A stretch of 64,000 nucleotides of DNA. Origin: Armatimonadota bacterium. GTDB taxonomy: Bacteria; Armatimonadota; Hebobacteria; GCA-020354555; CP070648. Location: NCBI GenBank assembly GCA_020354555.1, contig CP070648.1, positions 1,281,336 to 1,345,335 of the forward strand, given 5' to 3'. The position numbers and the translations under genes were made by a program. Below are positions 6,548-55,319 of the stretch, in pieces; position 1 is the first letter of the stretch; the number at the start of each line of letters is the position of its first letter. The notes beneath the pieces are model-generated. The model saw only the letters and a program-made list of their open reading frames with translations. It searched no databases and had not been told where the DNA came from.

Positions 6548-8419
6548 CTATTTCGGAGCCTCTCGTCTCAGCGGCAGGAGAGGCAGCGCGCGCGCGAGGG
6601 CGTCCGCATCATCTTCGAGCAGGAACACGAACACCTTCATGCCCGCGCGGTTCACCTCGCCGGTGTCGCGATCCGTGAAATCGCTCCGCCCGTCGGCGAC
6701 GTAGACCAGGCCGTCCGAGACGGCAATCCCCCGCGGGTCATTGGAAAACGGCCCGAGATGCCAGAAGCCTCGAAGCTCCTGCAACTCGGAATCCATTTCC
6801 AGGAATCCGCTGCGATGGTTGCGCCAGTTCTGGTTCCCCACATAGGCGGAAAACGTCGCGAACACGCGGCGCTGCGTCTCGTCCGTCCCGATCCCCGCGA
6901 TGTGATCCCCAAAGCCCTCGAAACGCGGGATCACGGGATCACCAAGTGGGGCCAAGGTCTCGGCCGTCACCTGATAGATCTTCGTGCGCCCCGCCGCCAG
7001 CAACAGCCTGTCGTCAATCGCCTCCATGCCCTCCACGGCGCCGATCGCCTGCGTACTCCAGCGCCGCAGGACCTGCCCCTGCGCCGCATCATCGAGCGAC
7101 AGGGAATAGATGCGTTTGCCGTCGTCGTCCGCGAGCAGCAGCACGTCTTCGCCGTTGACGCGGACGACGTCCAGGCCCTCAGGTCCCGGCGCGGTGAGCG
7201 TGCTGCCCGGGAACGGACTGGTCGGGATCGCGCGCGCCACCCGCCCGGTGCGCCGGTCAAGTGCATAGATCAGATGCGCGTTGTCATCGGCCACATAGAC
7301 GCGCTCGCCGAGCACAGTCACGCCCTCCGCGTCTTCGCCCATGGTGCCGTCCGTCGTCGGCCGCAAGTTGTAGATCCCGACCAGGAGCGGCACGCGCACC
7401 GGCAGCTCGTGGGAAGTCCGGGCGGCGCCGCGTTCCACCACACCCGCGACGGTCCTGGGATATGCGTTCGGGGCTTCGAAGACGCTCGCGTAATTGGCGC
7501 TCACACTCGCCTCGCCGGCGTTCGAGAAGACGTTTGCGGCAGCATAGACGGCGGTCCTGGACATCTCTCCCGTGTGCTGTTCGGCGCCGTGCGCGACGAA
7601 CCCCACGCCGAAGCGGCGGTTCGCGCTGAACGTGCAGTTCTGGACGCAGAGCACGTTGTAGTCGCCGCCCTCGACCGGAGAGTTGATGATCTCGACGCCG
7701 TCCTCGCCGTTGCCGTTGAACCGGCTGTCAAGGATGAGCGCATGCGTCCGCGTCGCGAGGCGAATCTCGATGCCGTCGTCGCCGTTGTCTGAGAACGCGC
7801 AGCCGTGGACGAGCACGCCCGCGTCCCCGTCGTAGTCCAGGCCGTCATCGCGGTTATCAACTAATCGGCTGGCGAGGATAGCCCCCTGAGTTGATTCGAG
7901 GTCAACGCCGTCGCCGTTACCAGTGACGAGACACCTCCGCATCAGCAGCACGGTATTGAAATCGTTATCGAACCCGACCCCGTCTGACGCGTTGCCTGCG
8001 ATGTGACAGTTCTCGATATCCAGCGACGCTCCGGCCCGGAGCAGTATCCCCGTCTCTCCGTCTCGAATGGTGAGACCGGCCATGCGGGAATGTCCCGTCA
8101 CCGTCACCACGGCGCCGTCGCCGGCTGCTTCGCCCGTGATTACGCACGTCTCCGCGTCTTCGCCGATGAGGTGGATCGCCGACGGCAGCACTACCCGCTC
8201 TCGATACGTGCCGGGCGCCACCAGTATCGTATCGCCCGCCGCCGCGGCCTGCACGGCCCCGCCGATCGTCTTGAAGTCGTCGGGCACACGACGCATCGCC
8301 GCCTGGCATACCGTACACGCGAGCCCCGAGATGGCCAGAACGAAGAGGTGTCGCACGACACGGCTCCGGAAATGCGATCGACGCATCGCCACAGCGCAAG
8401 CCGTCAGCCGTCTAGTCAT
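6548..8419 (-). CDS. Secreted right-handed parallel beta-helix (pectate-lyase/NosD-like) protein with a C-terminal beta-propeller-like domain.
   Basis: Repeated ..G.DG... beta-helix turns (NGDGVDLE, DNGDDGIEI, GNGEDGVEI). Signal-peptide-like MTRRLTACAVAM.../LFVLAISGLA. The start is ambiguous (8419 or 8386); 8419 avoids overlap with the upstream gene's stop. Confidence 0.55.
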   Translation of the reverse strand: MTRRLTACAVAMRRSHFRSRVVRHLFVLAISGLACTVCQAAMRRVPDDFKTIGGAVQAAAAGDTILVAPGTYRERVVLPSAIHLIGEDAETCVITGEAAGDGAVVTVTGHSRMAGLTIRDGETGILLRAGASLDIENCHIAGNASDGVGFDNDFNTVLLMRRCLVTGNGDGVDLESTQGAILASRLVDNRDDGLDYDGDAGVLVHGCAFSDNGDDGIEIRLATRTHALILDSRFNGNGEDGVEIINSPVEGGDYNVLCVQNCTFSANRRFGVGFVAHGAEQHTGEMSRTAVYAAANVFSNAGEASVSANYASVFEAPNAYPRTVAGVVERGAARTSHELPVRVPLLVGIYNLRPTTDGTMGEDAEGVTVLGERVYVADDNAHLIYALDRRTGRVARAIPTSPFPGSTLTAPGPEGLDVVRVNGEDVLLLADDDGKRIYSLSLDDAAQGQVLRRWSTQAIGAVEGMEAIDDRLLLAAGRTKIYQVTAETLAPLGDPVIPRFEGFGDHIAGIGTDETQRRVFATFSAYVGNQNWRNHRSGFLEMDSELQELRGFWHLGPFSNDPRGIAVSDGLVYVADGRSDFTDRDTGEVNRAGMKVFVFLLEDDADALARALPLLPLRREAPK

Positions 8420-11400
8420 CGGAATTCCGCCTTTCCAGGATTGGCTCACCCCAATGCGCCCAGTCGCAGACATTCGCCCCATCGGAATCCGTAATGAGAG
8501 TGACGAGAACCGTCTGCCCCGCCCATTTGCCGAGGTCCAGCGTGGTCTCCTGCCAGCCCTGCGGCTGAGGCACAGGCGCTTGCCACAGGATCTCGCCGTT
8601 CACTGCCGCGATGAACAGCACGCTTTCCCCGCCGTCGCGGACCCCGTAGTGGAAGCGCAGTCGGCATGGCTCCTCAGGAAGCGCCAGCGCCCAATCAAGC
8701 ACTGTCCGTCCTTGCGACGGCGTGTGTCCGCTGATCGCGCGCATTGAGACGTCTCTCATATCCACGTCTGCGATGGTCCCGCTGCCATAAACGCTGCGGT
8801 CGCCGCCGAGGCCTCGCGACAGTGTCGCCGTGCTGAATGGCAGGTCGGCCAGCTTGGCCGGCAGCGACACCTGCTCGCGCTCGTACACCAGCGCCGCCCA
8901 CAGTGAACGACCGCCCCCCTCGAAGTGATAACGGCGCGGCCTCTGGTCGCTCGCGGCCGCCGACGGGATCGTCGCCTGTGCCCGCGCATCTGACACCAGG
9001 TCAAACGCCAACGGCCCCTCGTCTGCGCCGGCCTCGATCCTGGCGTCATTCCAGTAAGCCCAGTCGTAGGAAACATCGCCGGCGGGACCGGGAGCCGTAA
9101 TCAACCGCAGCGTGGCCACCGTGCCCGCGAGGTCGCTCAGGTCGACTTCGCTCTCCATCCAACCCGCGTCTCGGCTCTGGTGGCGGGTGAATCGGGGTTC
9201 ACCGTTGATCGAGATGACGAACGTGACGCCGTCTCCGGTATCCTTGAGGTCGGGAACGTGGACGATGTCGGCGAGCCCTGTGGCGAAGCGCAGCGTCAGC
9301 GCCTCGGCCCGCGGCAGCTCGACAGTGAACTCACCAATCGTTGCTCCACCCGCCGCCTCGCCCTGCCACGGAGGGTGAGCGAAGATAGCCGGGCGCCGCT
9401 CGCCCTTGCAGGGGGCGCTTCGGGCGATGAAGACGCCGCCATCGGCAAGAGGTCCGGTCTGACCGTCGAGACTGCCGGGCGCCTGCCCGGGCGGTGACAT
9501 CAAGCGCCGCGCTTCGCCCATCGCTTTAGACGCCTCCCACACGAGCTTCGCGTAACGCTTGACCTGGGCAACGGCCCGCCGGGCGCCGCGATAGAATGTC
9601 TGCAGCACCAGTGGTCGCTCGGGACGCGCGACGGCCACCGCTTTCGGCACCGGTTTTCCGGGCCGCGCCAGATAACGCCGTTCCGGGTCGAGGCCGTACA
9701 CCCCGTTCCTGTCTTGCGCCGGCCAATCGGACACCACCCACGGCGCCGGCAGGGCATTCGTACCCGCGGCTATGAGCATGACGGGCGCCCGCTCCGGGCC
9801 GCGCAAGACCCAGCCGTACGACTCGCGTCTCAAGTTCGCCCGGAAGCCGGCGTTGCCGCGCCACGCCATGGCCTCGCTCGGCGCCAGATCAAAGTCGGGT
9901 CGGAGCTGTTGTGTCGCCCACAGCCGCCCGAGATCCAGCGCAAGCCGCACGCCATCGGCTTCCCAGTCAATGCTCGACTCGTGGACAGGCAAAGTCGGCA
10001 GGGACGCCAGTCGGACACCGACCTCTGTTGCGTCAACGTATGCTGCCAGGGCGGTCACCGGGTCGGGCATTCCGAGATGCCCGTAGAGCTGCACGAACGG
10101 AGAGAACAGGAAGCTCCGCACGGGATGGTACGTCCCCAGGTGCTCGTTCGGGTTCCAGAAGATCTCGCCCAGCTGCGCGAACGAGCATGGCAGGAGCACC
10201 TCGTGGATCCCTTCCGTGCCGATGGCGACCTCGGGCAGCGCGGCGTGCAGCTCGCGGAGGTATAGCTCCGCGCCGCCGAGGGCGTTGACGCCGTTCACGC
10301 GGCCGTGGGTGCTGTTGATCAGCACGGGATAATCCAAGTGGATGGCGTCAAACCCGAGCGTGCGATGAGCTTCCACCATCCGCTCGATGAGCAAGCGCCG
10401 CGCCTCGGGATACGCCGTGTTGAGCACGACGATCTGATGCTCCGGGTCGTGAGGGCGATCGAGGTACCAGCCGACGAGGTTCCCCGACCAGCGATCGCGC
10501 AGGAGCATATCGTCGTATTCGTCTCGCAGCGGATGCCGCGGGTTGATCCCGGCGAAGTTGAAGTGCAGCATGACGCGAAAGCCCAGCCCTCGGACCATGT
10601 TGATCCAGTCCGCGACGCCAGGGCCGGGCTCGTATTCCGGATAGTTGACGTCGTAGCCGTAGGACCGCCAACTTGGGACGTAGATCAGCGTGCGGTCTGG
10701 CGGCACTTCGCGGGCGAGTCGCTCCAACTCCGGGCGCTCCAGGAGAGCTTGAATCCGCACCACGAAGCCGATGCGACCTGCCCAGTCCGGTTGCCGCCGG
10801 GCGAGAGGCGTCAGGCCGTAGGAACGCTCCATCAGCCTGCGGTACTGCCCGGCGGGGCTTTGCCAGTGGCCCTGATACGCATCCAGTCGCCACGTCACGG
10901 CATCAAAGCTGCGATGGTCTTGAGCCGGGCCGTCGGTTTCCGTGGCAAAACGCAGAGCGGCCGTCTCGCCCGTGCGCTCGTAGCTGAGGTGTTTGAACTG
11001 CCTGAGGGGATCATCGGTCCAGAGCGAGATGCCGCCCTTCTCGCCTTGAACGAACAACGCGGCCGCCTGCCATGACCCCGGCCACTCATAGTCCACCTCG
11101 GGTTCGGTGCGAGCGGCATCCACGACCACGCCACCGGCGCCTGGGACAATCAGTCCTACTCTCCGCAAATCCAGGCCGCGCCAGCCCCACTCGACGCCGC
11201 CGATTCCGCCTTCGGCCCGCGCGACGCGTTGGGCGATGACAAGCCCGCCGGTCGCCTCGTCGGCCTTGACGGTGGTCGTGACGCGAGCCGGCTGCTCGCC
11301 TGCCGTCTCTGCGACCCATTGACATCCCCCCGGAAATTGGCGCTCCCGCACGAGGCGCGTCGCCTTGAGGACGCCGCCCTTCTCCATCACTCCAACCTGC

Positions 11401-11582
11401 GTTTGCCCCTCGCTGGGAGCGAAATAACGCTCCCCCGTAAGCCTATTCTCGAACGACACCAGGGATCCGTCATCGAAAACAGCGCCCACGGTGCTCGTCG
11501 TCACGGTGAGGGACTCCGCCTTCGCTGCGGCCGTCATCGTCATGGCAAGCACCAGGGCAAACGCAAACCGGCTCGTGGTCAT
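8412..11582 (-). CDS. Large secreted protein. It has a putative glycoside-hydrolase-like TIM-barrel core plus two tandem C-terminal beta-sandwich-like repeats.
   Basis: Start reassigned to MTTSRFAFALVLAMTMTAAAKA (signal peptide; ATG at 11582). The C-terminus holds two ~140-aa repeats ending DWAYWNDARIE / CDWAHWGEPILE. The family was not recognised. Confidence 0.5.
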   Translation of the reverse strand: MTTSRFAFALVLAMTMTAAAKAESLTVTTSTVGAVFDDGSLVSFENRLTGERYFAPSEGQTQVGVMEKGGVLKATRLVRERQFPGGCQWVAETAGEQPARVTTTVKADEATGGLVIAQRVARAEGGIGGVEWGWRGLDLRRVGLIVPGAGGVVVDAARTEPEVDYEWPGSWQAAALFVQGEKGGISLWTDDPLRQFKHLSYERTGETAALRFATETDGPAQDHRSFDAVTWRLDAYQGHWQSPAGQYRRLMERSYGLTPLARRQPDWAGRIGFVVRIQALLERPELERLAREVPPDRTLIYVPSWRSYGYDVNYPEYEPGPGVADWINMVRGLGFRVMLHFNFAGINPRHPLRDEYDDMLLRDRWSGNLVGWYLDRPHDPEHQIVVLNTAYPEARRLLIERMVEAHRTLGFDAIHLDYPVLINSTHGRVNGVNALGGAELYLRELHAALPEVAIGTEGIHEVLLPCSFAQLGEIFWNPNEHLGTYHPVRSFLFSPFVQLYGHLGMPDPVTALAAYVDATEVGVRLASLPTLPVHESSIDWEADGVRLALDLGRLWATQQLRPDFDLAPSEAMAWRGNAGFRANLRRESYGWVLRGPERAPVMLIAAGTNALPAPWVVSDWPAQDRNGVYGLDPERRYLARPGKPVPKAVAVARPERPLVLQTFYRGARRAVAQVKRYAKLVWEASKAMGEARRLMSPPGQAPGSLDGQTGPLADGGVFIARSAPCKGERRPAIFAHPPWQGEAAGGATIGEFTVELPRAEALTLRFATGLADIVHVPDLKDTGDGVTFVISINGEPRFTRHQSRDAGWMESEVDLSDLAGTVATLRLITAPGPAGDVSYDWAYWNDARIEAGADEGPLAFDLVSDARAQATIPSAAASDQRPRRYHFEGGGRSLWAALVYEREQVSLPAKLADLPFSTATLSRGLGGDRSVYGSGTIADVDMRDVSMRAISGHTPSQGRTVLDWALALPEEPCRLRFHYGVRDGGESVLFIAAVNGEILWQAPVPQPQGWQETTLDLGKWAGQTVLVTLITDSDGANVCDWAHWGEPILERRNSDD

Positions 11583-11763
11583 GCTGCGCTCTCCGCGATC
11601 TCTCATAGTCACATCGCTTGTTTCGTTCTGCCACTCCGCAGTCGCGCCCTTCTGTCGGTCGTCGGCCGGGCGCTCCCTTGGCACGAGCGAAGGATAATGA
11701 TGTCCTCTTGATGGCGAATGCGCCGAGCAGGTGAGGAGGGCATGCGCGGCGCAATCCTGATCC

Positions 11764-13146
11764 ATGCTTACGGCTGCCCCGCCGAACCGCGACCAGCAGC
11801 GGCCTGTGGTTTCGATTCCGGCTCATGCCGTGCTATGTGGGCTCGGGCTTGCGATTGCGGTCGGGCTGTGGATGCTGCACACGCCCGCCGACGGGCCCTG
11901 GGGGTCGCGCTTCATCGCGGGTCAAGCCATCGCCTTCGCGGCTTACCTCGGCGCGCTCGCGCTGGCGCGGAGCGGCCGCCTCCGCGGTGTCGCTGCGCTC
12001 ACGCTAATGCTGGCGTTCGCTCTAGGCCTGCGTGCGGTGACGTGGGTGCGCGCGCCGCGCTTGTCCACCGACTTCTATCGCTACATCTGGGACGGCCGGG
12101 TTGCCAACGCCGGGATCAACCCGTATCGTTACGCGCCCGCAAACCCGAAGCTGAGCCATCTCCGCGACGACCTGTGGCGTCCCATCAACCACAAGCGCGT
12201 CCCAACCATCTACCCGCCTGCCGCGCAGATCCTGTTCGCCGGGCTGTGGCGCGTGCCCGGCGGCCCGGAGCGCACCTTCCGGTGCGCATTCGTGTTGTTT
12301 GATCTCGCGGCGCTCGGCCTGGTGTGGATGCTGCTCGTCCGCCTGCGTAGGCCCCGCGAATGGCTCGTGGCGTATGCCTGGCATCCGCTGGTGATCACCG
12401 AGTTCGTGGCTGGCGCCCATGTGGACGTTGTCGGGGTATGCTTCCTGCTCGCCGCCTTGGTCCTGGCGCCTCCGGCGAATGACAGACGGGTCGGCTGGTC
12501 GGCGGCGGCGCTCGGCCTGTCCATTATGACCAAGGGCTACGCGTTGGCGGCGCTGCCGTTCATGTTCCGGCGCCATGGTTGGCGATACCCGGCATGGGTA
12601 GCGGTCACGTGTGCTGCGGTCACCGCGCCGTTTCTGGGGGCTGGCGCCGCGCTCTTTGGCGGGCTGACCCAATACGTCGCCCGGTGGCGGTCGAACGCCA
12701 GCCTGCTGCTGTGGATCGAGCGTGCGGTGGCGCCGCTGACGAATGACGAAGCAGTCGCGGCAAAGGCGATCGTCCTGGCCGCGCTGATTGTGCTCGCTAT
12801 CTGGCTCATGCTGCGCGCGACGCGCGATGACGGGGATCCCGTGCGCAACACATTCATCATTCTCAGCGCGGCGCTGCTCCTGGGTGGCCCGGTTCTGCCG
12901 TGGTATGTCGCGTGGACCGTGCCGTTCCTCTGCCTCTGGCCTGTCGCCGGATGGGTGCTGTTCACGGGGCTGGCTTCAGTGGCATACTACACTCACTGGT
13001 CGCTGCCGGACGCGGTGTCGCCGGCAAAGCAAGTCGAATACGGCGTGGTGTACGCCGCACTGGCCATCGAAGGCGCCTGGCGCCTTTTCCGCCTCAGACG
13101 AATCGGTCGGGTCGCCAGCACAGGCTCCGCAGAGCCATCCCGATAA
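11764..13146 (+). CDS. Polytopic membrane glycosyltransferase, GT-C fold, DUF2029/GT87-like (polyprenyl-phosphate-sugar dependent).
   Basis: About 11 predicted TM helices. The aromatic/Arg-rich loops and the hydrophobic pattern are typical of the PimE/GT87/DUF2029 family. Confidence 0.55.
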   Translation: MLTAAPPNRDQQRPVVSIPAHAVLCGLGLAIAVGLWMLHTPADGPWGSRFIAGQAIAFAAYLGALALARSGRLRGVAALTLMLAFALGLRAVTWVRAPRLSTDFYRYIWDGRVANAGINPYRYAPANPKLSHLRDDLWRPINHKRVPTIYPPAAQILFAGLWRVPGGPERTFRCAFVLFDLAALGLVWMLLVRLRRPREWLVAYAWHPLVITEFVAGAHVDVVGVCFLLAALVLAPPANDRRVGWSAAALGLSIMTKGYALAALPFMFRRHGWRYPAWVAVTCAAVTAPFLGAGAALFGGLTQYVARWRSNASLLLWIERAVAPLTNDEAVAAKAIVLAALIVLAIWLMLRATRDDGDPVRNTFIILSAALLLGGPVLPWYVAWTVPFLCLWPVAGWVLFTGLASVAYYTHWSLPDAVSPAKQVEYGVVYAALAIEGAWRLFRLRRIGRVASTGSAEPSR

Positions 13147-14482
13147 TCGCGGCGCCCGCCTTTGCGGAACCGGTAATAGTGCCGGTTATCTTGGACTTCC
13201 CAATGCGACGGCGATAGCTGACCGGCACCTCCGCGACGCGCAGGCCCGCTCGTGCTGCCTTCGCCTGCATCTCCATCGTCCAGCCGAACGCGCGATCCGC
13301 CATCCCCAGTTCCATGAGCGCGTCCGCGCGAATCGCCCGAAACGGCCCGAGATCCGTCGCGCGCTGTCCGTGAAGCAGCCACAGCATCCGCCCGGCAAGC
13401 CAATTGCCGAACACGGAATGCGAAGGCAAGGCGCCTCGCTCGCGGGTTCCCGCCGTGCGCGAGCCGATGACCAGGTCGGCGCGCCGTTCCAGGATCGGAG
13501 CAACCAACCCAATCATTTCCTCGGGGTGGTCGCTGTAGTCCGCGTCGAGGAAGACGACGAGGTCCGCGCGATCGAGTGCCGAGACTCCGCGCAGACACGC
13601 CGCTCCGTAACCGCGCTCCGGCTCGGAGACCACGCGAGCTCCGTGAGATCGGGCGACCGCCGCCGTGCCGTCCGTGCTGCCGTTGTCCACCACGATGACT
13701 TCCGACGCAAGCTCGGGGGGGATGTCGTCCAGCACGCGGCCGATGGACGATTCCTCATTCAGCGCCGGAATGACTACGCCGATGCGCGGCGGACAATCCG
13801 AGAGCCGCAATTCGCGCAACGCAGCGCGGGTTGCAGGGCAGGGCGTCGGCGCGCCGCGGGCTTCGATCGCGCGCAGGTGCGCAGCCAGGAAGCGCAGATC
13901 GTCAACCGTGTCCACGTCGTACCATGTGGCAAGCAAATCGACCCGCAACTCCCGGCGCTCAGCGGCCGATCGAGTCTGCGCGTGCGCTTCGGGGGTGCTC
14001 CACGGGATGTCATCCAGCATGTGCGGGTCGAGTGAGCGACCGGCGATCAGATAGTAGCCTCCGTCGCGTGTGGGGCCGAGCACGATGTCGGCCCCGCGCA
14101 GATGGCGCGCGGCCGCCGTGATGCGCGATACCGGCAAGCTCGGGCTGTCGGATCCGACGATGACCACGCGCTCACACTCGCGCGCTCGAGCGCGCGCCCA
14201 AGCGTCGGCGATGCGCTCTCCGAGGTTATCGCCCTGCTGGGGGAACACCTCGATTCCAGGGCACGCGCGCTCGATCCAGGCTGTGCTCGAGAGAGACGCG
14301 CCCGCCCACGCGATGAAGGGCCGCGCATCGCGCAGACGCGATGCGGCAGCCACGGTGTCCTGCAGGAAGCCTTGATAGAGACGCGCCGCGCGCTCCGCCC
14401 CGATGTCTGCGGCGAGACGACTCTTCACCTCGCCCGGTTTCGGCTCCCGCGCAAAGATGACCAGGCCGAAAGTGAAGCCCAT
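13094..14482 (-). CDS. Fusion protein. N-terminal TIGR04282/DUF2064 domain fused to a C-terminal TIGR04283-like GT2 (dolichyl-phosphate-sugar synthase-like) glycosyltransferase.
   Basis: N-terminus GLVIFAREPKPGEVKSRLA...LYQGFLQDTV matches the DUF2064 signature (xxAKxPxPGxVKTRL). C-terminal half IGVVIPALNEESSIGRVLDDI...VIVVDNGSTDGT...DADYSDHP is a GT-A/GT2 DXD glycosyltransferase. Confidence 0.7.
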   Translation of the reverse strand: MGFTFGLVIFAREPKPGEVKSRLAADIGAERAARLYQGFLQDTVAAASRLRDARPFIAWAGASLSSTAWIERACPGIEVFPQQGDNLGERIADAWARARARECERVVIVGSDSPSLPVSRITAAARHLRGADIVLGPTRDGGYYLIAGRSLDPHMLDDIPWSTPEAHAQTRSAAERRELRVDLLATWYDVDTVDDLRFLAAHLRAIEARGAPTPCPATRAALRELRLSDCPPRIGVVIPALNEESSIGRVLDDIPPELASEVIVVDNGSTDGTAAVARSHGARVVSEPERGYGAACLRGVSALDRADLVVFLDADYSDHPEEMIGLVAPILERRADLVIGSRTAGTRERGALPSHSVFGNWLAGRMLWLLHGQRATDLGPFRAIRADALMELGMADRAFGWTMEMQAKAARAGLRVAEVPVSYRRRIGKSKITGTITGSAKAGAAIIGMALRSLCWRPDRFV

Positions 14483-14506
14483 GCCCTCGAAGCCGTCCTT
14501 CGATAC

Positions 14507-15451
14507 TTACGAGGCAACTAGCGAACCCATGCAGCCGGAGCCTGCGCCCGCGGTACACCCATAGCAGTGGGTCGCGGTCTTTATGGGCCGCGCGGAGAGA
14601 GCCGCATAGTCGAACTCCCATATCGTCTGCGGCACATCCTCGCCGAGTCGCAGGTCGAGCGCCTGGTTGAAGTCGCAGTCGTACAGCCGTCCGTCCCACG
14701 CAACGCTGAGCAGCACTCGGCACATAACGTGCGCAACGGCCTCCGGGTTGTGGCTTTTCACCAGCAGGTCCCAGTAGTCCTCGAGGTCGCCGGATTCGCG
14801 CAGTTGCTCCTCGAAGCGGCCGATGGGCATGTTGGTGATAGTGATCAGGCGGCTGAACTCTATGCCGTGGTCGCGGCCCAATTCGTGTCGGTACGCGTCC
14901 TCCAGTTCGGCTTGCGGGCCGGGCAGGGCGGGCCCGGCGGGATTGTACACGAGAGTGAGCGACAGGCCGCTGTTGGCAACGCCATAGCCGATCCCGTTGA
15001 GTCGCTTCAGCGCGGCGATGCTCTTGCCGTACGCGCCGTTGCCGCGCACGGCGTCAACGTTCTCCTGCGTGTAACACGGCATGCTGGCCACCAGCTCTGC
15101 CGTGCGCTCAGCAAAGAATTCGGGCAGATCGGCCTGCTCCGGCTCTGTGAGAACGGTGAGATTGGTGCGCACCTTGACATTCGGGACGACCGCCGCGGCG
15201 GCACTGACGAAATCGCGAAACGTGGGGTTGAGTTCCGGGCTACCGCCGGTCAGGTCGAGCGTCTCAATGGGATGCCGCTCCAGCACCGACACGATCGCGC
15301 GCTGGGTGTCCCACTCCATGCACTCCTTGCGCTCCGGGCCGGACGCGAGATGACAATGCCGGCACGACTGGTTGCACAGACGGCCGAGATTGACTTGCAA
15401 GATGTCCAGGCCGGACGCCTCTATCCCAGGAAACGGCGAGTAGATCTGCAT
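14507..15451 (-). CDS. arsS: Radical SAM/Cys-rich-domain protein of the ArsS (TIGR04167) type. All-Cys version, no in-frame TGA.
   Basis: CNQSCRHC (CxxxCxxC radical-SAM cluster motif) near the N-terminus. C-terminal Cys-rich tail CYGCTAGAGSGCMGS. AGGAG RBS 7 nt upstream of the ATG at 15451. Confidence 0.65.
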   Translation of the reverse strand: MQIYSPFPGIEASGLDILQVNLGRLCNQSCRHCHLASGPERKECMEWDTQRAIVSVLERHPIETLDLTGGSPELNPTFRDFVSAAAAVVPNVKVRTNLTVLTEPEQADLPEFFAERTAELVASMPCYTQENVDAVRGNGAYGKSIAALKRLNGIGYGVANSGLSLTLVYNPAGPALPGPQAELEDAYRHELGRDHGIEFSRLITITNMPIGRFEEQLRESGDLEDYWDLLVKSHNPEAVAHVMCRVLLSVAWDGRLYDCDFNQALDLRLGEDVPQTIWEFDYAALSARPIKTATHCYGCTAGAGSGCMGSLVAS

Positions 15452-15480
15452 GAGCTGCTCCTACGCATTGATGATGTCAC

Positions 15481-16701
15481 CTAGCAGTGGAAGCGGGCGC
15501 GCAATGGATGGTCCTTCGGCAGTTCTTCCCAGCGTGCGCGGTGGGCAATCAGGGCGCGTGTCAGATCGCCCACACGAATGTCGCCGACGAAGCATCCGCC
15601 GACGATGTATCCGTCCCGCAGCACCACGCGCGCCGTGCCGTGCGGCGTGTAGGGAGCCCACAGTGTCTCCACACCGTCCTGGTCCGGGACGATGCTGCCG
15701 ACGCCGCAGAAGTCCACGCCAGCAAGCTCGGACACATTCAGGAACGGCGCGGCTTCGTAGCGCTCAGCCCCTCCCTTCATGTTCGCCCCTGCAACGCGTC
15801 CCATGTGCGCGGCGACGTACCACAGCATTTCGGCCGGAGCGGCGGAGCCGTCGGCCTGCCGCACCTGGGCACAGTCGCCGGCCGCGAATACGTCGGGCAA
15901 GCTGGTGCGCATAGAGTCGTCCACCACGATGCCTGCGGCCACTTCCGCGCCCGCCGCTTCGGCCAGCTCGCGGTTGGGCGCGATACCCACCGCGAGGCTG
16001 ATTATCTGACACGGGATGTGGTCGCCGCTCTTGGTCGTGACCCCGGTCACGCGGCCGTCCGCCACCGACATCTCGGTGACCTCTTCGCCCGTGCGGACGT
16101 CCACACCCATGCGGCGCAGCGCGTCATGGACTACCTCGGCCTCCTCGGAAGTCATCTGCTTCGCCAGGAAGCGGTCGTCGCGCATGATGAACGTCGTCTT
16201 GATGCCATGATGCGCGAGCGACTCCACGATCTCGATCGAGGTCAGCCCGCCTCCGACGACGACGGCGGCCTCCGCGTCCTGCATGGCGTGGGTGATCTCC
16301 ACGACGTCGCGCAGGGTATTGAGGCCAATCAGGCCTTTGACGCCCTCTCGCACCCAGGGCAGCATGCGCCCGCGGGTGCCGGTTGCCAGCAGTATTCGGC
16401 GGTAGCTCAACTCGGCCCCGTCAGCAAGTGTGATCGTGCGCGCCTCTGGGTCAAGCGAGGAAACGGTCGTGGCGCACTGGAGGTCGAATCGGTTGCGCCG
16501 GTAGAAGCCCCTGGGGCGCCCCACGGTGTCCGCGAACTCGATGCGCCCGAGGAGGTAGTAATAGAGCGCCGGGCGCGAGTAGAACTCGCACTCCTGATCG
16601 GTAATCACGATGACTTGCGCCCGCGGGTCGCGCGCGCGTATGGTCTCCGCCGCGTTGACACCTGCGACGCCGTTGCCGATTATGATGTACGGGGCTGCCA
16701 T
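15481..16701 (-). CDS. FAD-dependent pyridine nucleotide-disulfide oxidoreductase (NAD(P)H:ferredoxin/rubredoxin reductase-like).
   Basis: N-terminal GxGxxG FAD site IIGNGVAGVNAAE. Second Rossmann site VVVGGGLTSIE. Conserved AAGDCA flavin motif. Confidence 0.7.
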   Translation of the reverse strand: MAAPYIIIGNGVAGVNAAETIRARDPRAQVIVITDQECEFYSRPALYYYLLGRIEFADTVGRPRGFYRRNRFDLQCATTVSSLDPEARTITLADGAELSYRRILLATGTRGRMLPWVREGVKGLIGLNTLRDVVEITHAMQDAEAAVVVGGGLTSIEIVESLAHHGIKTTFIMRDDRFLAKQMTSEEAEVVHDALRRMGVDVRTGEEVTEMSVADGRVTGVTTKSGDHIPCQIISLAVGIAPNRELAEAAGAEVAAGIVVDDSMRTSLPDVFAAGDCAQVRQADGSAAPAEMLWYVAAHMGRVAGANMKGGAERYEAAPFLNVSELAGVDFCGVGSIVPDQDGVETLWAPYTPHGTARVVLRDGYIVGGCFVGDIRVGDLTRALIAHRARWEELPKDHPLRARFHC

Positions 16702-16704
16702 GGA

Positions 16705-17787
16705 TTACGCCTCCCTCTGGCGAGGCGCCGCCAATTGGCGGACGAATGGCCGGCGGAAACGATACGTGTTCTTCACCGCGGCGGCATGCTCCGGCTCCGG
16801 AAACTGCCGGAAACTGAGCGCGTAGCGCGGGCACACCGCGATGCACGCTCCGCAGCCGACGCACTGATCGTCCTTGAGCGGAATGCCCTGACGCGCGCGC
16901 ATGCGGATGTCAATGCCCATCTCGCAGTACCGATTGCACGTGCCGCATTCGATGCAGCGCTGATCGTCGGTGTAGATCGCGAATCTGCCGTGTTGGGACA
17001 GCGCCCCAAGTCCCGCCGCAAGCGGGCAGAAGAAGCGACACCACGGCCGGTTCCCCAGAATGGGATAGAGCCCGATCCCCACGAGATCAACCAGCACGAA
17101 TCCGACGATCCACTCGTACCATTTGAAGGGCCAGGTGACCTTGAACCACACGCCCAGGGTTACGATGCCCGCGGCGACGAGGATCGCGTAGAAGGTGCGG
17201 TCGAGGCCCTGAGCCCGAGGTCCTTTGGGGCCGATGGTACGGAACGCCTCACCCGCGGTCTCCGCGAGATTGCCGCAGAAGCAGAACCACGAGCAGTACC
17301 GCTTGCCGAGGACCAGCGCCACCGCAGGCCAGACAATGAAAGACATGATGGCCCCGTAGACGAGGATGGATTCCGGACGGTTCGGATTGAGGACGCTCAT
17401 GTGTAAAGGCCACGTGAGATGAACCCGCCGGGCGAGAAGCGGCATGCCGAAGCCCAGGGCGAGCGGCCCGGCCATGATGATCCCGATGACGGTCTGCACC
17501 GTCATCACGGAGACCGTGCGCCAGCGGAAGTAGGTGTTCTTCCACCGTCGGATCACCCACACGCCGAACACGATGACGCTTGCCCAATACGCCCACGGCA
17601 CGAGCGGGCCGAGCCAGCGCGGGCTGCCCGGCCACAGCGCGCGGATGACGATGACCGCGAGCAGCGAAAGCACAGCGGTTCCCGCCAGCCACGGCAGCAC
17701 GTCGAAACGCCGCCGCGCTCTGAAGCGCTCGCACAGCGGACAGTGATCGAAATCGTGGTACTGTGCTATGTCTGTCGGCTCCGCCAC
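16705..17787 (-). CDS. Membrane-bound polyferredoxin (NapH/MauN/YccM-type 4Fe-4S binding protein).
   Basis: Multiple TM helices. Two CxxCxxCxxxCP ferredoxin motifs (CIECGTCNRYCE, CVGCGACIAVCP) plus additional CxxC pairs. Confidence 0.65.
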   Translation of the reverse strand: MAEPTDIAQYHDFDHCPLCERFRARRRFDVLPWLAGTAVLSLLAVIVIRALWPGSPRWLGPLVPWAYWASVIVFGVWVIRRWKNTYFRWRTVSVMTVQTVIGIIMAGPLALGFGMPLLARRVHLTWPLHMSVLNPNRPESILVYGAIMSFIVWPAVALVLGKRYCSWFCFCGNLAETAGEAFRTIGPKGPRAQGLDRTFYAILVAAGIVTLGVWFKVTWPFKWYEWIVGFVLVDLVGIGLYPILGNRPWCRFFCPLAAGLGALSQHGRFAIYTDDQRCIECGTCNRYCEMGIDIRMRARQGIPLKDDQCVGCGACIAVCPRYALSFRQFPEPEHAAAVKNTYRFRRPFVRQLAAPRQREA

Positions 17788-18165
17788 GTTGTCGTTCGCC
17801 TCCTGCTCGGCGGTCCCGAGGTGCCCCCGACCGGTCGGTGCTGCTGGGCCAATCGCGCGCCCCGAATCGCGCTGTGTCCGCGCATTACAACCGGTGGAGT
17901 CGATTTAGGCGGTCCAAGCGATTGCCCCTGCGATGCGATGTTGGATCCATCTACCATACGTCACGTGCCGCCCGGATGCTGCGAACCGCGGTGCGCCTGG
18001 TACACGCCCGGTTGAGACAGGCAAAGCCAATCCCCGTGGTAAACATGCCGCACAACGTTGTGCCGCGGCCGCAACAGGAGTCACTGGTGAGAAGTCGGGA
18101 ACGAATGACAGTCCATTGCAGCGCGACGATGTTCGGACGCCGGTGCTACACGAAAGGGCGGGGGA

Positions 18166-18927
18166 ATGAAGGTTTGTGCCGCTGTTCTAGTTGCGATAGG
18201 GCTGGTATTCTCGACCGGATGTGCGCCCGAGAATGCCGTCGGCATCGGCGACTCCGCGCCGACCGCCTTCAGCCACGAACTGTTTGACGCGGTGCTCCAG
18301 GAACACGTAGGATCCCACGGCCTGGTGGACTACGCGGCGCTGCGGAGGGACCGCGCTCGCCTCGATCAATACCTCGACGCGCTGGCCCGAACCGACGCAT
18401 CGTCCCTTCCGTCGCGTGAGGATCGTCTGGCCTACTGGCTGAATGCCTACAACGCATTTACCATCGCGGGCGTGCTCGACCACTATCCCGTGAAGAGCGT
18501 GCAAGACGTCGAGCGCTTCTTCAAGGAACAGCGCTACAAGGCCGGCGGCGCGCGATACTCACTGGACGACATCGAGAACGCGGTGATTCGGCCGACTTTC
18601 CGGGAGCCGCGCATCCATTTCGTCCTCGTGTGCGCCGCGAAGAGTTGCCCGCGCCTGTGGAGCCGCGCAATTGATCCAGGTACGCTCGAACAGCGGCTCG
18701 AGGCGTCAGCAAAAAAGTTCATCAACAGCCCCGCAGGCGCGCGCGTTGATAGAACGAAGAAGGAGTTGACGCTGTCAGCGCTCTTCAAGTGGTACCGTAC
18801 GGACTTCCTCGGCGAGGCGGATTCGCTTGCGGGCTACGTGCGGCGGTACCTCGATGATCCGCCCTCTGACTTGGCGCAGTACCGCGTTCGCTTCCAGGCC
18901 TATGACTGGAGCCTTAACGAGCGGTAG
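18166..18927 (+). CDS. DUF547-domain lipoprotein.
   Basis: Lipobox VFSTGC after MKVCAAVLVAIGL. Conserved ...YWLNAYNAFTI...HFVLVCAAKSCP... block characteristic of DUF547. AAGGGCGGGGGA RBS region. Confidence 0.55.
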   Translation: MKVCAAVLVAIGLVFSTGCAPENAVGIGDSAPTAFSHELFDAVLQEHVGSHGLVDYAALRRDRARLDQYLDALARTDASSLPSREDRLAYWLNAYNAFTIAGVLDHYPVKSVQDVERFFKEQRYKAGGARYSLDDIENAVIRPTFREPRIHFVLVCAAKSCPRLWSRAIDPGTLEQRLEASAKKFINSPAGARVDRTKKELTLSALFKWYRTDFLGEADSLAGYVRRYLDDPPSDLAQYRVRFQAYDWSLNER

Positions 18928-18965: not shown

Positions 18966-20513
18966 TTAGGCGTGACTCATTCGCCGCGGCAGCCGGTTAT
19001 CGGTCTCGACCAGTCGCTCCATCAGCCGTATCAGCAGGTCCCTCTTCAGCTCGCGCCTCCCGGGGTCATGCCAGAGATTGTGCAGCTCCCCCGGGTCTCC
19101 GCTGAGATCGAACAGCTCCCCGTACTCCTGCCCGGGATAGGCCGTGATCTTGTAACGCTCAGTGATCAACGTGCGCAAACGCAGACCGAGATAGTCCTCG
19201 TCATTCTCGACGACGACGCTGTCCTGCAAAGCTCCCGTTTCCCCGCGCAACTGTCCCGCGAACGAAATGCCGGGCCAGGGCGGGAGCTGGTTCTCGGTTT
19301 CCGGCTCAGGCGGCGCCAAGCCCTCGGGTATCGGCACTCCCGCGATATCCAGAATCGTCGGCGCGAAGTCGAGATAGCTGATAAGCCCGGCGCTCGTGAC
19401 GCCCTTGGCAAAGAGGCCCGGGCAACTCCAGATGAACGGCATATGGACCAGGCCGTTCATGTGAAACGGCCCCTTGTTGATCATCCAGTGATCTCCCATC
19501 ATGTCCCCGTGGTCGGAGAGGAAGCACACCACGGTATTCTCGCGCAGGCCGCACCGGTCGAGCTCATCCATCACGCGCCCGATGTTGTGATCGACGTGCG
19601 AGATCATGCCATAGGTCAGCGCGAGAATCTCCCGCAGCTGCTCATCGCTCATCTTCGTCGGGCGCATGCGCCCACTGAGCGGCAGCGGCCTCTCGTACAC
19701 CTCTCCGTAGAACGGCGGCAGCGTCTCGAGTTCACCCTCACGACGCGTGGGCATGGGCATGTCGGCGGAATCGTACATCCTCGCCCACGGCTCCGGCGGG
19801 CAGTAGGGATGATGCGGATCCGGAAACGAGCACCACGCGAAGAACGGCTCCTCGCGCGCATGCCGCTCGAGGAACTCAATCGTCCGATCCGCGACCCAAG
19901 TGTTGTAGTGCAACTCCTCGGGGATCGCGCAGTGCCATGCCTGCTCGGCATTGTGGGGAGTTGGCGTGCCGGCCTCGGGCTTCCACAGCCCTTCGGCTCC
20001 GGGGTCTTTGCCGCGCAGCCAGCGACGGTAGTCACCGGTCGTTCCGGGCCCGTGGCCGATGCTTATCTCGGCGGTCTGGAAGCCGAAGTACGGCGTCGGC
20101 ATTGCGTCGAGAATGCCGTGGTTCCAGAAGTAGTACGACTCGGCCCAGTGAGCTGGATCGAGCGTACTCGGATCAACGCCGTGAGGCGTGGAAAAGGGGA
20201 GCAGATGGAGCTTGCCGACGGAGTGCGTGGAGTAGCCCGCCTGTGACAGCGCGTCGAGCATCGTCGGGAAGCGGCGATCCAGCGGGATGCCGTTCGTGCG
20301 CACCCCGTGAGCGCGCGGCGTCAAGCCGTTGAACAGCGTGGCACGCGACGGCATGCACAGCGGGTTATTGACGTACGCGCGAGTGAAACGGACACCGGCG
20401 GCGGCGAGCCGGTCCAGGTTAGGCGTCTGGATCACCGGATTCCCCGCGCAGCCCATGTGGTCGCCGCGCATCTGGTCGGTCACGAAGCACAGGAAGTTGA
20501 GACGTCTAGGCAT
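18966..20513 (-). CDS. Cys-type (formylglycine-dependent) sulfatase with no signal peptide.
   Basis: Canonical sulfatase signature PLCMPSRATLFNG (C-x-P-x-R...TG). N-terminus LCFVTDQMRGDH fits the metal-binding start of sulfatases. Confidence 0.8.
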   Translation of the reverse strand: MPRRLNFLCFVTDQMRGDHMGCAGNPVIQTPNLDRLAAAGVRFTRAYVNNPLCMPSRATLFNGLTPRAHGVRTNGIPLDRRFPTMLDALSQAGYSTHSVGKLHLLPFSTPHGVDPSTLDPAHWAESYYFWNHGILDAMPTPYFGFQTAEISIGHGPGTTGDYRRWLRGKDPGAEGLWKPEAGTPTPHNAEQAWHCAIPEELHYNTWVADRTIEFLERHAREEPFFAWCSFPDPHHPYCPPEPWARMYDSADMPMPTRREGELETLPPFYGEVYERPLPLSGRMRPTKMSDEQLREILALTYGMISHVDHNIGRVMDELDRCGLRENTVVCFLSDHGDMMGDHWMINKGPFHMNGLVHMPFIWSCPGLFAKGVTSAGLISYLDFAPTILDIAGVPIPEGLAPPEPETENQLPPWPGISFAGQLRGETGALQDSVVVENDEDYLGLRLRTLITERYKITAYPGQEYGELFDLSGDPGELHNLWHDPGRRELKRDLLIRLMERLVETDNRLPRRMSHA

Positions 20514-20824
20514 CCAGTTGTCCTCCTCGTCCGTGTCGCACCAGTACTGCGGCGCCGCCCACCGCGCAGCACCGCGCCCGCCGGGCGCTGCACCCGGTAG
20601 CCGGTTCCATCTCTCTGCAGTTCCAGCACTTCAATCAGCACCCCTGCCTGCAGCCGACTGCGCTCGGCCGCTGCCAGACCGCGCCCGCTGGCCGAAGCAC
20701 GATGGCTTCGCCGGCGACGGCGATTCGGTCATTCCGCAGTCCTCGCGTCCGCTTGACCCAGGTACACCGTTCATGTATCCTTCGGAGAGTTGCGCGTCGG
20801 GGGCGTAGTCAACGGTCTACCGTC

Positions 20825-22732
20825 ATGAAATACGCGCTGCGGCTTGCCTTCTCCATGGCCCTGATGTCTGGCGTGATGCTCACGGAAGCTCGAACGATGA
20901 TGGCCGATGAGGAGAGTCATCCCGTGAAGACATGGGCGCAACTGGTGGACTCCGTCAAGAATGACAAGGCTGCGCGGGGCATCCGCGACGCGCTGGTCGA
21001 GCGCGCTCGCGCGGTCGCTCAATCGCCGGTTGTGCGCCGGGTTTACCGGCTGGACGACGTCGGCAAGCATCGCACGGGGCTCGACGGGCGCGCGCAGTAT
21101 CTGGAGCCGGAGATCGCCGAGACCTTCGCGCTCGCGATGTCCGATTACGGTACTGCGAGCACGATCGCGAGTGAGTTGCCCCTGCTCGCGGCGGCGTACC
21201 GCCTGACCGACGAGGACGTCTTCCGCGCGCGCGTTATCGAGCAACTCGCCGAGACTGCCACATGGTCGCCCTTGCAGCGTCCGGGCTGGACGCTCTATGC
21301 GCCCGGCCATCGCCTGCCCCCGGACGGCCAGGACGGCAACTGGCTTGCGACCGGCATGGCGATGAGGGGCATCGGGGATGCGCTCGACCTCATGCCGCGC
21401 GGTTCGATACCGGCTGACCTGCGCGGGTCGCTGGACGATCTCCTCGCGCGTGAGATTGCGAGCATCGTTGACGATTGGGAGACGAAGCGACCTTGGTTCG
21501 TCAGGGGCGACAACCCGATCACCAATCAGTGGATGCTGCCCACCGAGGGCTTGGTGCGGGCGTGCCTGGTGCTGGGCGTTGAGAAGCATCGGGACGCGTA
21601 TGAGTTGGGTGTCGCAAACACGGTGAAGGCGCTGGACAGCCACGGCGCAGCCGGCGAGTTCGAGGAAGGCGTCGGCTACGCAGCGTTCACCATCACCTCG
21701 ATGGTGCACACCGCGCACGCCATGGCCACTGCCGGGGACCGGCGGGCCATTGACCACCCGTTCCTGCGCAATTGCCCGACGTGGATCGTCCATCACATTC
21801 AACCCGGGGGCATGCTCATCAACTGCTTCGATGCGGGCGCCGCCCGCGCACTCGGCAACCTGCGGCCGCTGCTGTCCCTGCTCGCCGTGTGCACCGGAAG
21901 CTCCGCGGCGCGCTGGGCATTGGCGGAGCAAGTGGGCGGCCCTTCGGACGACCTGCCGGGGCTGCTGTGCCGTGAACTGCCGCCGGTGGGCGACGAGGCA
22001 GCACCGCCTCTGCACGCGTCCTACGAGCGAGCCACCCGGGTTAACTGGCGGGACTCCTGGGGGCACGACGCCACCGGGGTCTGGGTGCGCGGCGGCCACG
22101 GAACTGACCAGCACGACCACCACGACCGGGGCCACGTGAACTTCATCTCTCGCGGGCGTCCGATCCTCATCGAGGCCGGCACTCCCGCTTACCACAACCC
22201 GCTGATTGAGTCGCACTATCAGTCCGGCGTCGGCCATAACGTCCTGCAATTGGGCGAGGCCATGCCGCGCACCGACGTCGCACCGATGTCCGTGCGGCGC
22301 CTGGGCGACAGCGGCGGCGAGGTCACCGTGGATCCTACGAAATGCTACGACGACCTGGAGCAATGGCGTCGTACCGTGCAGTGGACCGCCGATGCCATGA
22401 CTGTGAGCGATCAAGTGAAGCTCGAGGCGGGAACGCGCCAAGTTGTCTGTTTCCGTTGGCATCTGGGGACTGCGGACCACGTCGATATCATGGGCAGCGA
22501 CGATGCTTTCACGGTCCACTGGCCGGACGCGACCATGACGGTTCAGGGATCCGGGCCGCTGCTCGTCTCACAGGAGATGCTGCCGGATAACACGCTGGCG
22601 TCCGGCCCGCGCAGCAGCGAGTCCCCCGACCACTTGCATACCTGCATCGTGATCAGATCACGCGATGCAGCGGAAGCCCTGAGGCTGGTGACGAAAGTCG
22701 TGCCCAACGACCGGACTTCGGGCAACCAGTGA
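20825..22732 (+). CDS. Secreted heparinase II/III-like polysaccharide lyase family protein.
   Basis: Start reassigned to MKYALRLAFSMALMSGV (signal peptide). The ORF track opens at 20702. C-terminal H-x-H/D-rich block GGHGTDQHDHHDRGHVNFISRGRPILIEAGT resembles the heparinase II/III C-terminal domain. The alpha/alpha-toroid N-half is plausible. Confidence 0.5.
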   Translation: MKYALRLAFSMALMSGVMLTEARTMMADEESHPVKTWAQLVDSVKNDKAARGIRDALVERARAVAQSPVVRRVYRLDDVGKHRTGLDGRAQYLEPEIAETFALAMSDYGTASTIASELPLLAAAYRLTDEDVFRARVIEQLAETATWSPLQRPGWTLYAPGHRLPPDGQDGNWLATGMAMRGIGDALDLMPRGSIPADLRGSLDDLLAREIASIVDDWETKRPWFVRGDNPITNQWMLPTEGLVRACLVLGVEKHRDAYELGVANTVKALDSHGAAGEFEEGVGYAAFTITSMVHTAHAMATAGDRRAIDHPFLRNCPTWIVHHIQPGGMLINCFDAGAARALGNLRPLLSLLAVCTGSSAARWALAEQVGGPSDDLPGLLCRELPPVGDEAAPPLHASYERATRVNWRDSWGHDATGVWVRGGHGTDQHDHHDRGHVNFISRGRPILIEAGTPAYHNPLIESHYQSGVGHNVLQLGEAMPRTDVAPMSVRRLGDSGGEVTVDPTKCYDDLEQWRRTVQWTADAMTVSDQVKLEAGTRQVVCFRWHLGTADHVDIMGSDDAFTVHWPDATMTVQGSGPLLVSQEMLPDNTLASGPRSSESPDHLHTCIVIRSRDAAEALRLVTKVVPNDRTSGNQ

Positions 22733-29548: not shown

Positions 29549-29604
29549 AGACGCTCAGACCGTCACACCGCGGTTGCCGCTCACGTCGGATGACACCTGG
29601 CTGC

Positions 29605-30573: not shown

Positions 30574-30576
30574 CTC

Positions 30577-32250: not shown

Positions 32251-32326
32251 GGGCGTAATCCACTTCCGGGCTGCAGCGCGTGTGTGTCCTAAGTCCGGTG
32301 GAGCCAGCGCGCACGAATCACGCGCG

Positions 32327-34660: not shown

Positions 34661-34715
34661 ACTATCTCGGCCGGACTCCCGCGGTTTCGCACACCCGGAT
34701 CGGGCGCCCCCGGAT

Positions 34716-34994: not shown

Positions 34995-35009
34995 ACTGCG
35001 TTGAACTCC

Positions 35010-45178: not shown

Positions 45179-45249
45179 TAGTGAGTCTTCTCCTTTCGAC
45201 TGCTTGCAGGCCCATGGCATGGGCGCTCCGCTCTCCCTCACGGAGCGGG

Positions 45250-45804: not shown

Positions 45805-45824
45805 TTCCAGATGTCCGTCCGGCG

Positions 45825-55287: not shown

Positions 55288-55319
55288 TTGATTCCTCCTC
55301 GCTATCCGTGAGCCGCCGG

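Follow-up and report, generated by a model that had tools for sequence, protein, structure and literature searches.

A radical SAM ArsS gene cluster in Armatimonadota that probably includes a module for lipid-linked sugar transfer to the envelope

In the biosynthesis of arsenosugars the only characterized step is the first committed one, catalyzed by the radical S-adenosylmethionine (SAM) protein ArsS; no paper was found on the enzymes that lead from its product to ribosides and arsenolipids. ArsS makes 5'-deoxy-5'-dimethylarsinoyl-adenosine (DDMAA) from DMAs(III) (PMC13598754; Cheng 2021, as cited), and in Synechocystis sp. PCC 6803 the arsS gene is described as co-transcribed with arsM, the gene for the arsenic methyltransferase (Xue et al. 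2019; Cheng et al. 2021, as cited). The present analysis concerns an arsS-type locus from an Armatimonadota bacterium, contained in a stretch of 64,000 nucleotides (contig CP070648.1, positions 1,281,336 to 1,345,335), which is referred to as the window. In this locus the arsS gene is accompanied by genes for a membrane polyferredoxin, a flavoprotein, a TIGR04282::GT2 fusion protein, a GT-C membrane glycosyltransferase of the GT87 type and a DUF547 protein (Table 1). The cluster is an uncharacterized branch of the known pathway, and it is probably an ArsS-associated module in which a sugar is passed via a lipid carrier to the envelope; that the locus is the lineage-specific, Armatimonadota arrangement of an unpublished modular gene set, distributed around ArsS in several phyla, is judged an evenly balanced proposition.

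The radical SAM protein is a bona fide member of TIGR04167. The match extends over model positions 3-303 of 303 and its score lies far over the equivalog-level cut-off, so that the ArsS assignment made by the initial annotation is upheld by the profile comparison. The protein displays the C26xxxC30xxC33 (CxxxCxxC) motif and a C-terminal Cys-rich DUF3641 domain (171.6 bits), and it represents the Cys form, not the selenocysteine form. Among 91 ArsS sequences, 88 columns are conserved at 90% or more; the window protein matches 83 of them, including all eight conserved Cys columns (C26, C30, C33, C244, C259, C296, C299 and C307), and none of the five differences affects a Cys. A 100% identical protein from an Armatimonadota metagenome-assembled genome already bears the name ArsS at NCBI, and homologs are abundant in environmental data, with at least 7999 clusters at E<=1e-20; a sequence search of the PDB returned no solved ArsS structure. 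From its family membership, with the chemistry taken from the literature, the protein is a putative catalyst of 5'-deoxyadenosyl transfer to dimethylarsenite.

All six open reading frames (ORFs) of the locus are found where the initial annotation had placed them, with coding-type codon bias (G+C content at third codon positions, 0.76-0.84). The four genes of the minus-strand run are separated by gaps of 3, 29 and 24 bp, and the GT87 gene is convergent with the fusion gene, their 3' ends overlapping by 53 bp. The promoters of both divergent units presumably lie in the intergenic region between the polyferredoxin and DUF547 genes; no sigma-70 consensus site was found in this region, in a scan that says little for an Armatimonadota genome, and a terminator scan gave a count equal to the shuffle expectation.

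The arrangement is conserved. Two independent metagenome contigs (L006/L007) carry the polyferredoxin, flavoprotein, ArsS and TIGR04282::GT2 genes and the convergent GT87 gene in the same order, at 60-73% identity, and conservation of this five-gene block at such distance rules out a chance juxtaposition. Moreover, GT87 and GT2 share an operon with ArsS in three phyla, represented by the window (Armatimonadota), L096 (Zixibacteria) and L092 (Phycisphaerales), while in other Armatimonadota (L090:4765-9865 and L095:8516-14429) TIGR04282, GT2, polyferredoxin, flavoprotein and GT87, with or without DUF547, are found together. The proposal that the GT-C enzyme and the flavoprotein/polyferredoxin pair are members of the cluster is thus borne out by its conservation in related loci. 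In L092, IS66 and Mu-type transposase genes directly follow the operon, which suggests that this operon is mobile.

The fusion protein combines two enzymatic domains. Its N-terminal half is recognized by TIGR04282, above the cut-off, and by DUF2064 (98.5 bits), and its gene starts 24 bp downstream of arsS; the closest PDB match is 3CGX, a 'putative nucleotide-diphospho-sugar transferase' (98.9 bits), indicating a CofC/MobA-like nucleotidyltransferase fold. The C-terminal half is a GT2 domain, which gives 127 bits with AglJ over residues 234-431, 81 with the Dol-P hexose transferase model, 53 with PpgS and 26 with ArnC; these scores are below every equivalog cut-off (325 for AglJ) and indicate resemblance to the class, not AglJ membership. 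Assignment to TIGR04283 was rejected, as the domain scores 46.6 bits where 182 are required, in an alignment limited to about 90 N-terminal residues, and true TIGR04283 proteins give 242-302 bits in the same test. Thus the TIGR04282::GT2 description of the initial annotation stands for its first half, while the second is a third GT2 type and not the known partner type. Alignment of 44 GT2 domain sequences revealed 36 invariant columns, including DNGS..D; the DxD positions D85 and D87 are conserved in at least 90% of the homologs, neither being invariant. Identity to the window's domain is 52-76% across phyla. An AlphaFold2 (AF2) model of the domain has a predicted local distance difference test (pLDDT) value of 94.6, and the domain contains no predicted transmembrane (TM) helix, with a C-terminal helix at domain residues 208-227.

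Among the top 120 homologs of the fusion protein, about 100 are triple fusions of about 680 residues, AglJ-like GT2::TIGR04282::TIGR04283, from Planctomycetota, Desulfomonile and others; through these proteins the AglJ-like GT2 is linked with the partner set of ArsS. Other domain combinations were also observed: a TIGR04282::TIGR04283 fusion of 441 residues at L023:3676-5001, and protein P0174 (452 residues), with the reversed order AglJ-like GT2::TIGR04282.

The GT87 enzyme shows, in seven homologs from at least three phyla, invariant L100, D103, R106, D110 and G111 (LSTDxYRYxWDG) in the first loop after the N-terminal TM helices; Y150-P152-A154, E213, H219, K257 and PWY379-381 are also invariant. 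The homologs of L006, L092, L096 and L097 match in addition PF26314 (MptA_B_family). GT87 adjoins GT2 in L006, L090, L095, L096, L097 and L092, and the AglJ-like GT2 and GT87 occur together in all seven loci that have either of them (these six and the window). Indeed, the idea of a lipid-linked, outward glycosylation, already advanced in the initial annotation, fits this association. The DUF547 protein has an N-terminal signal or anchor sequence and Cys19, and from its sequence it is a possible lipoprotein. DUF547 genes are found in many loci with ArsS or the module (L003, L011, L023, L024, L030, L056, L076, L077, L082, L095, L096, L100-L103, and L092 as a DedA/VTT fusion). PDB sequence searches gave no solved structure for GT87 or DUF547, and literature searches found no functional study of bacterial DUF547, the papers being plant transcriptomics or incidental mentions.

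A pathway can be proposed from these elements. ArsS would adenosylate a trivalent methylarsenical to 5'-deoxy-5'-dimethylarsinoyl-adenosine, as expected from family membership here and from the published chemistry; the methylarsenical could derive from an arsM gene elsewhere in the genome or from neighbouring organisms. A housekeeping or unlinked enzyme of the S-methyl-5'-thioadenosine (MTA) phosphorylase type may then free 5-deoxy-5-arsinoyl-ribose 1-phosphate, a step suggested by the dedicated mtnP genes that adjoin TIGR04283/TIGR04282 in plasmid clusters of Burkholderia and Acinetobacter. The TIGR04282 domain, given its fold, would activate the sugar phosphate; the AglJ/DPM-like GT2 would put the sugar, either arsenical ribose or an ordinary hexose, on polyprenyl phosphate, and GT87 would hand it on to an acceptor at the external surface of the membrane, as family resemblance and the co-occurrence of GT2 and GT87 suggest for both reactions. 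The flavoprotein may pass electrons from NAD(P)H to the membrane polyferredoxin, as the adjacency of the two genes suggests, together with the one flavoprotein::polyferredoxin fusion, in L035, whose flavoprotein half is of another type. Candidate acceptors are pentavalent methylarsenicals, whose reduction would yield the As(III) substrate, the radical SAM cluster, for its priming, or the lipid-linked intermediate, in a redox step. DUF547 would act outside the cytoplasm or at the membrane. The DedA/TVP38 family is implicated in polyprenyl-phosphate recycling, and members of this family are fused to DUF547 or to a flavoprotein in L092 and L103. In its most specific form, the proposal is that arsinoyl-ribose itself is transferred to polyprenyl phosphate and then, by GT87, to an envelope glycan or lipid, with the redox chain supplying the required reduction, in an organoarsenical branch common to Armatimonadota, Zixibacteria and Planctomycetota; this form is considered unlikely. 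If true, it would mean an arsenic-containing cell-surface glycoconjugate and a first genetic handle on the steps that follow ArsS.

The plasmid clusters, which come from cultured bacteria, show further gene combinations. ArsS clusters of Burkholderia thailandensis (L100), B. glumae (L101) and Acinetobacter portensis pJNE5-X3_NDM-1 (L103) contain S-methyl-5'-thioadenosine phosphorylase together with CcdA and thioredoxin, an N1pC/P60 hydrolase, a second radical SAM gene and DUF547; L103 also encodes a TVP38::FAD-oxidoreductase fusion. Burkholderia plasmid records with arsS number 49.

Several observations weigh against a single ArsS-to-envelope pathway. The genes for MTA phosphorylase, DedA/TVP38, PHO4, ArsM, ArsC and ArsR are absent from the window by tblastn; a published biochemical test of the post-ArsS steps was found for no member, and no paper on the partner genes was found. 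Fold comparison of the GT2 half by Foldseek gives query TM-scores (TMq) of 0.76-0.78 with GpgS, level with 0.71-0.75 for ArnC/DPMS, so that a polyprenyl-phosphate acceptor (ArnC, DPMS) and a soluble phosphoglycerate one (GpgS, MpgS) are left unseparated. The ArsS protein itself has one non-conservative departure, Q135V in the DAQRG motif, at a column that is Gln in 93% of the 91 sequences and Val in the window and L006. Finally, the module also occurs apart from ArsS: L090 and L095 keep it with no ArsS within 4.7-10 kb, and L097:8667-15389 has the order flavoprotein-polyferredoxin-GT2-large GT2-GT87 without ArsS, TIGR04282 or DUF547, although its GT2 shares 52% identity with the GT2 half of the window's fusion protein, which argues for an ordinary nucleotide-sugar donor. 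A small methyltransferase gene is also present in L097.

These latter loci would be expected if two systems lay side by side, the polyferredoxin, flavoprotein, GT2 and GT87 carrying out envelope glycosylation with an ordinary sugar, and ArsS and TIGR04282 being merely co-located or co-regulated with them. The long contigs with the ArsS-free polyferredoxin homologs hold none of the best 120 ArsS homologs, and GT87 is rare when seen from ArsS, being present in one of 31 ArsS-seeded loci. Conversely, two separate systems would not account easily for the covalent fusion of the AglJ-like GT2 to TIGR04282 here, and to TIGR04283 as well in the roughly 100 listed proteins, for the operons shared by GT87, GT2 and ArsS in three phyla, or for L003 and L035, in which the polyferredoxin/flavoprotein pair, or its fusion, accompanies ArsS and ArsM, GT87 being absent. 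On balance this explanation is improbable, and the preferred reading remains that of one ArsS-associated module that probably uses a lipid carrier.

The redox pair consists of a membrane protein and a flavoprotein. The polyferredoxin has an N-terminal CxxC, C165xxxC169xC171 after TM4, C250xxxC254P after TM6 and two CxxCxxCxxxC [4Fe-4S] motifs (C278/281/284/288 and C309/312/315/319); the Cys residues are invariant in 25 homologs, except C281, which is about 90% conserved. It matches Fer4_21 and Fer4_5 of Pfam. Membership in TIGR02163 (NapH/MauN) was rejected (58.9 bits against a cut-off of 213), only the architecture being in common. The family is small (73 matches), and its named close relatives are all from Armatimonadota; a protein 100% identical to the window's polyferredoxin is on record, as for ArsS. 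The flavoprotein belongs to the pyridine-nucleotide-disulfide oxidoreductase superfamily, with Pyr_redox_2 (184 bits) and without Pyr_redox_dim; its best matches are PadH, AndAa, the N-terminus of NirB, HcaD and NorW, none of which reaches the cut-off. The two genes are adjacent in L003, L006, L090, L095, L096 and L097, and at L035:2752-5121 a YpdA/thioredoxin-reductase-like flavoprotein, different in type from that of the window, is fused to a NapH-like polyferredoxin in a protein of 789 residues. In L095 (11080-12281) the flavoprotein gene is seemingly split or frameshifted, with two tblastn segments and 359 residues called, versus 409 on a sibling contig.

In the initial annotation the pair was taken as a possible dedicated electron supply to the radical SAM cluster, and in this explanation flavoprotein and polyferredoxin would form a NAD(P)H-to-[4Fe-4S] chain that mainly reduces ArsS. 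Radical SAM enzymes do need a one-electron donor to start catalysis. In the window and in L006 the two genes directly precede arsS, at distances of 3 and 29 bp, and in L003, L035 and L096 the pair or its fusion adjoins ArsS. Nevertheless, ArsS is reported in a review to adenosylate DMAs(III) without NADH, in a redox-neutral turnover where the As-centred radical re-reduces the cluster (PMC13598754). Furthermore, in the six loci with this pair (window, L006, L090, L095, L096 and L097) the AglJ-like GT2 and GT87 are present in all, TIGR04282 in five and ArsS in three, the pair being kept without ArsS in L090, L095 and L097. A polyferredoxin is missing from most ArsS loci, and many contain instead a MerA-like flavoprotein of the disulfide-reductase type, which is not a ferredoxin reductase. 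This MerA-like type is found near ArsS in at least 15 loci, among them the arsM-arsS cluster on a cyanobacterial plasmid (L104), and is often accompanied by DedA/TVP38 proteins and redoxins. The distribution of the pair and the redox neutrality of ArsS thus weaken the dedicated supply, which is possible but not favoured, and a chain serving mainly ArsS is held to be distinctly unlikely; the tie of the redox pair to the GT2/GT-C module is at least as close as its tie to ArsS.

The absence of a methyltransferase gene from the window, which had been noticed in the initial annotation, was verified. Pfam scans of 48 window ORFs detected no methyltransferase domain, tblastn of the 64 kb with five ArsM-type proteins, one ArsC and one ArsR gave no match, and a class-I motif-I pattern had no match in the six frames; the TIGR04169 protein is also without a tblastn match in the window. 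This absence had led to the suggestion that the substrate might not be arsenic. In this lineage the ArsS homolog would then transfer the adenosyl group to a different soft nucleophile, for example a selenium species, with export of the product as a glycoconjugate. No ArsM, ArsC, ArsR, PHO4 or other arsenic gene is present in 64 kb, the Q135V substitution marks the clade of the window and L006, redoxin, AhpD-like and deiodinase-like genes stand beside ArsS elsewhere, and most of the more than 8000 ArsS homologs are uncharacterized, all of which would suit such a change.

The comparison of neighbourhoods, drawn from 88 ArsS-seeded loci, does not set the locus apart. An ArsM-like gene is present within 5 kb in seven of the 19 loci with flanks of at least 5 kb on both sides, and absent in 12; with flanks of 3 kb, it is found in 10 of 27. 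In annotated plasmids, arsM is near arsS in Acinetobacter portensis and in the cyanobacterium Pseudanabaena, while no arsM lies within 8-9 kb of arsS in Thiodictyon, Hymenobacter and the examined loci of Burkholderia glumae and B. thailandensis. Since the lack of a neighbouring arsM is the commoner state, the ArsM-less locus does not really speak for another substrate. In a neighbour-joining tree of the 91 ArsS sequences, ArsM-linked and ArsM-unlinked proteins are intermixed, and the branch closest to the clade of the window is the ArsM-linked ArsS of L092. Accessory genes like those of the window also stand beside ArsM types, in L003 (NF038099, 552 bits), L035, L104 (annotated arsM), L092 and L103 (ArsM-like). 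With the high score for the family and the conserved Cys all kept, the suggestion of non-arsenic chemistry is not sustained: the cluster is not evidence for it, and such a substrate is considered very unlikely.

Table 1. Coordinates of the features of the 64-kb window, and gene order in related loci
Feature	Location	Strand	Details
Polysaccharide-degradation genes	5211-6476, 18966-20513, 20702-22732, 38768-40111, 44000-53047, 62811-63998		
GT-C membrane glycosyltransferase, GT87/MptA_B-like	11764-13146	plus	460 aa, PF09594 35.1 bits vs cut-off 25, at least 9 TM
TIGR04282::GT2 fusion protein	13094-14482	minus	462 aa; TIGR04282 residues 7-196, GT2 residues 232-450
AglJ/DPM-like GT2 domain (GT-A fold), C-terminal half of the fusion	13094-13789	minus	AglJ 127 bits
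TIGR04282 (DUF2064) domain, N-terminal half of the fusion	13895-14464	minus	179.8 bits vs cut-off 134
ArsS radical SAM protein	14507-15451	minus	314 aa, TIGR04167 416 bits vs cut-off 300
NAD(P)H flavoprotein, ferredoxin/rubredoxin-reductase type	15481-16701	minus	406 aa, Pyr_redox_2
Membrane polyferredoxin, NapH/CcoG-like	16705-17787	minus	360 aa, 6 predicted TM; first gene of the minus-strand run
Divergent intergenic region, polyferredoxin gene/DUF547 gene	17788-18165	none	378 bp, by position
DUF547 protein	18166-18927	plus	253 aa, PF04784 95.8 bits vs cut-off 27
Housekeeping block ribF-truB-DHH-rbfA-infB-nusA	28508-36449	minus	
Housekeeping block, four-subunit 2-oxoacid:ferredoxin oxidoreductase	54355-57547	minus	
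Housekeeping block recR-ybaB-dnaX	57686-60452	minus	
L096, Zixibacteria			one operon: flavoprotein-polyferredoxin-DUF547-AglJ-like GT2-GT87-CelA/PgaC-like large GT2-TIGR04282-TIGR04169-ArsS (420 bits)
L092, Phycisphaerales, GCA_016710275.1	L092:1-12025		ten-gene operon: ArsM-like-PHO4-ArsS-DUF3179::redoxin-DedA(VTT)::DUF547-MerA-like flavoprotein-94-aa ORF-T4-deiodinase-like-GT87-[AglJ-like GT2::TIGR04282::TIGR04283]
L003, Crocinitomicaceae			flavoprotein-polyferredoxin-DUF547-ArsS-TIGR04282-AsSugarArsM (NF038099, 552 bits vs cut-off 400)
L035			ArsM-ArsS beside flavoprotein::NapH-like polyferredoxin fusion

As for the surroundings, the composition of the window is uniform (GC 0.63-0.68) and mobile-element genes are absent, and therefore the cluster does not lie on an obvious island. 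The window is rich in genes for polysaccharide degradation, namely three sulfatases, a heparinase II/III-like protein, GH5, a GH141-like beta-helix protein, GHL15, GH123 and a BNR sialidase-like protein. Next to the GT87 gene, a minus-strand ORF of 1117 codons (8412-11765) has a mechanical start that overlaps the GT87 start codon; a likelier start is the signal-peptide-like MTTSRFAFALVLAMTMTAAAKA, at residue 62, and the sole family match is a weak one to NPCBM. A functional link between GT87 and this secreted-protein gene was rejected, because no homolog of the latter is found in the related loci, where the GT2/ArsS side is conserved.

Among the described systems, a close one is the arsM-arsS pair of Synechocystis. 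The window protein falls in the same equivalog, TIGR04167, and shares the CxxxCxxC motif as well as the Cys-rich DUF3641 domain; differently from the cyanobacterial pair, no methyltransferase is encoded in 64 kb, and a polyferredoxin, a flavoprotein of the ferredoxin-reductase type, an AglJ-like GT2 and a GT-C enzyme extend the two-gene picture. The arsenosugar partner set of NCBIfam comprises TIGR04167, TIGR04282, TIGR04283, TIGR04169 and NF038099, and its transferases were formerly named 'rSAM/selenodomain-associated transferases 1 and 2'. From this set the window has ArsS and TIGR04282, adjacent, with DUF547 nearby, whereas TIGR04283, the peroxidase-like TIGR04169 protein and the NF038099 ArsM are lacking; the AglJ-like GT2 stands in the place of TIGR04283, and elsewhere it forms three-domain fusions with TIGR04282 and TIGR04283. 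No functional study of the TIGR04282, TIGR04283, DUF2064 and DUF3641 partners, nor of arsenosugar glycosyltransferases, was found in the literature, and no published description of the AglJ-like GT2, of GT87 or of the ferredoxin-reductase/polyferredoxin pair was found in the context of ArsS. The arrangement is not a singular one, as the set recurs in several phyla and sometimes with ArsM. The recurrent candidates, i.e. TIGR04282, the AglJ-like GT2, GT87, DUF547 and a NAD(P)H flavoprotein with or without polyferredoxin, to which other lineages add MTA phosphorylase and DedA/TVP38 proteins, make the post-ArsS steps testable and hint at a lipid-carrier route to the envelope.

The remaining components resemble known membrane systems. 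Like NapH, MauN and CcoG, the window polyferredoxin crosses the membrane several times and carries CX3CP-type motifs together with two [4Fe-4S] ferredoxin motifs; differently from them, it is encoded beside its own NAD(P)H flavoprotein and not near genes of the nap, cco or nos type. CcoG, which contains two [4Fe-4S] clusters, acts as a cupric reductase with an unknown electron donor (PMC7558416), and by analogy it would provide a precedent for metal(loid) reduction, nothing more. The glycosyltransferases of the window recall the pairs formed by a polyprenyl-phosphate sugar synthase and a GT-C enzyme. Such pairs include Ppm1/DPMS with PimE (GT87) or MptA/B, ArnC-ArnT and GtrB-GtrC. The likeness consists in a GT2 with GT-A fold and DxD, and in a multi-TM GT87 with invariant acidic residues in its first loop; the difference is that in the window the GT2 is fused to TIGR04282 and set in an ArsS cluster together with a redox pair.

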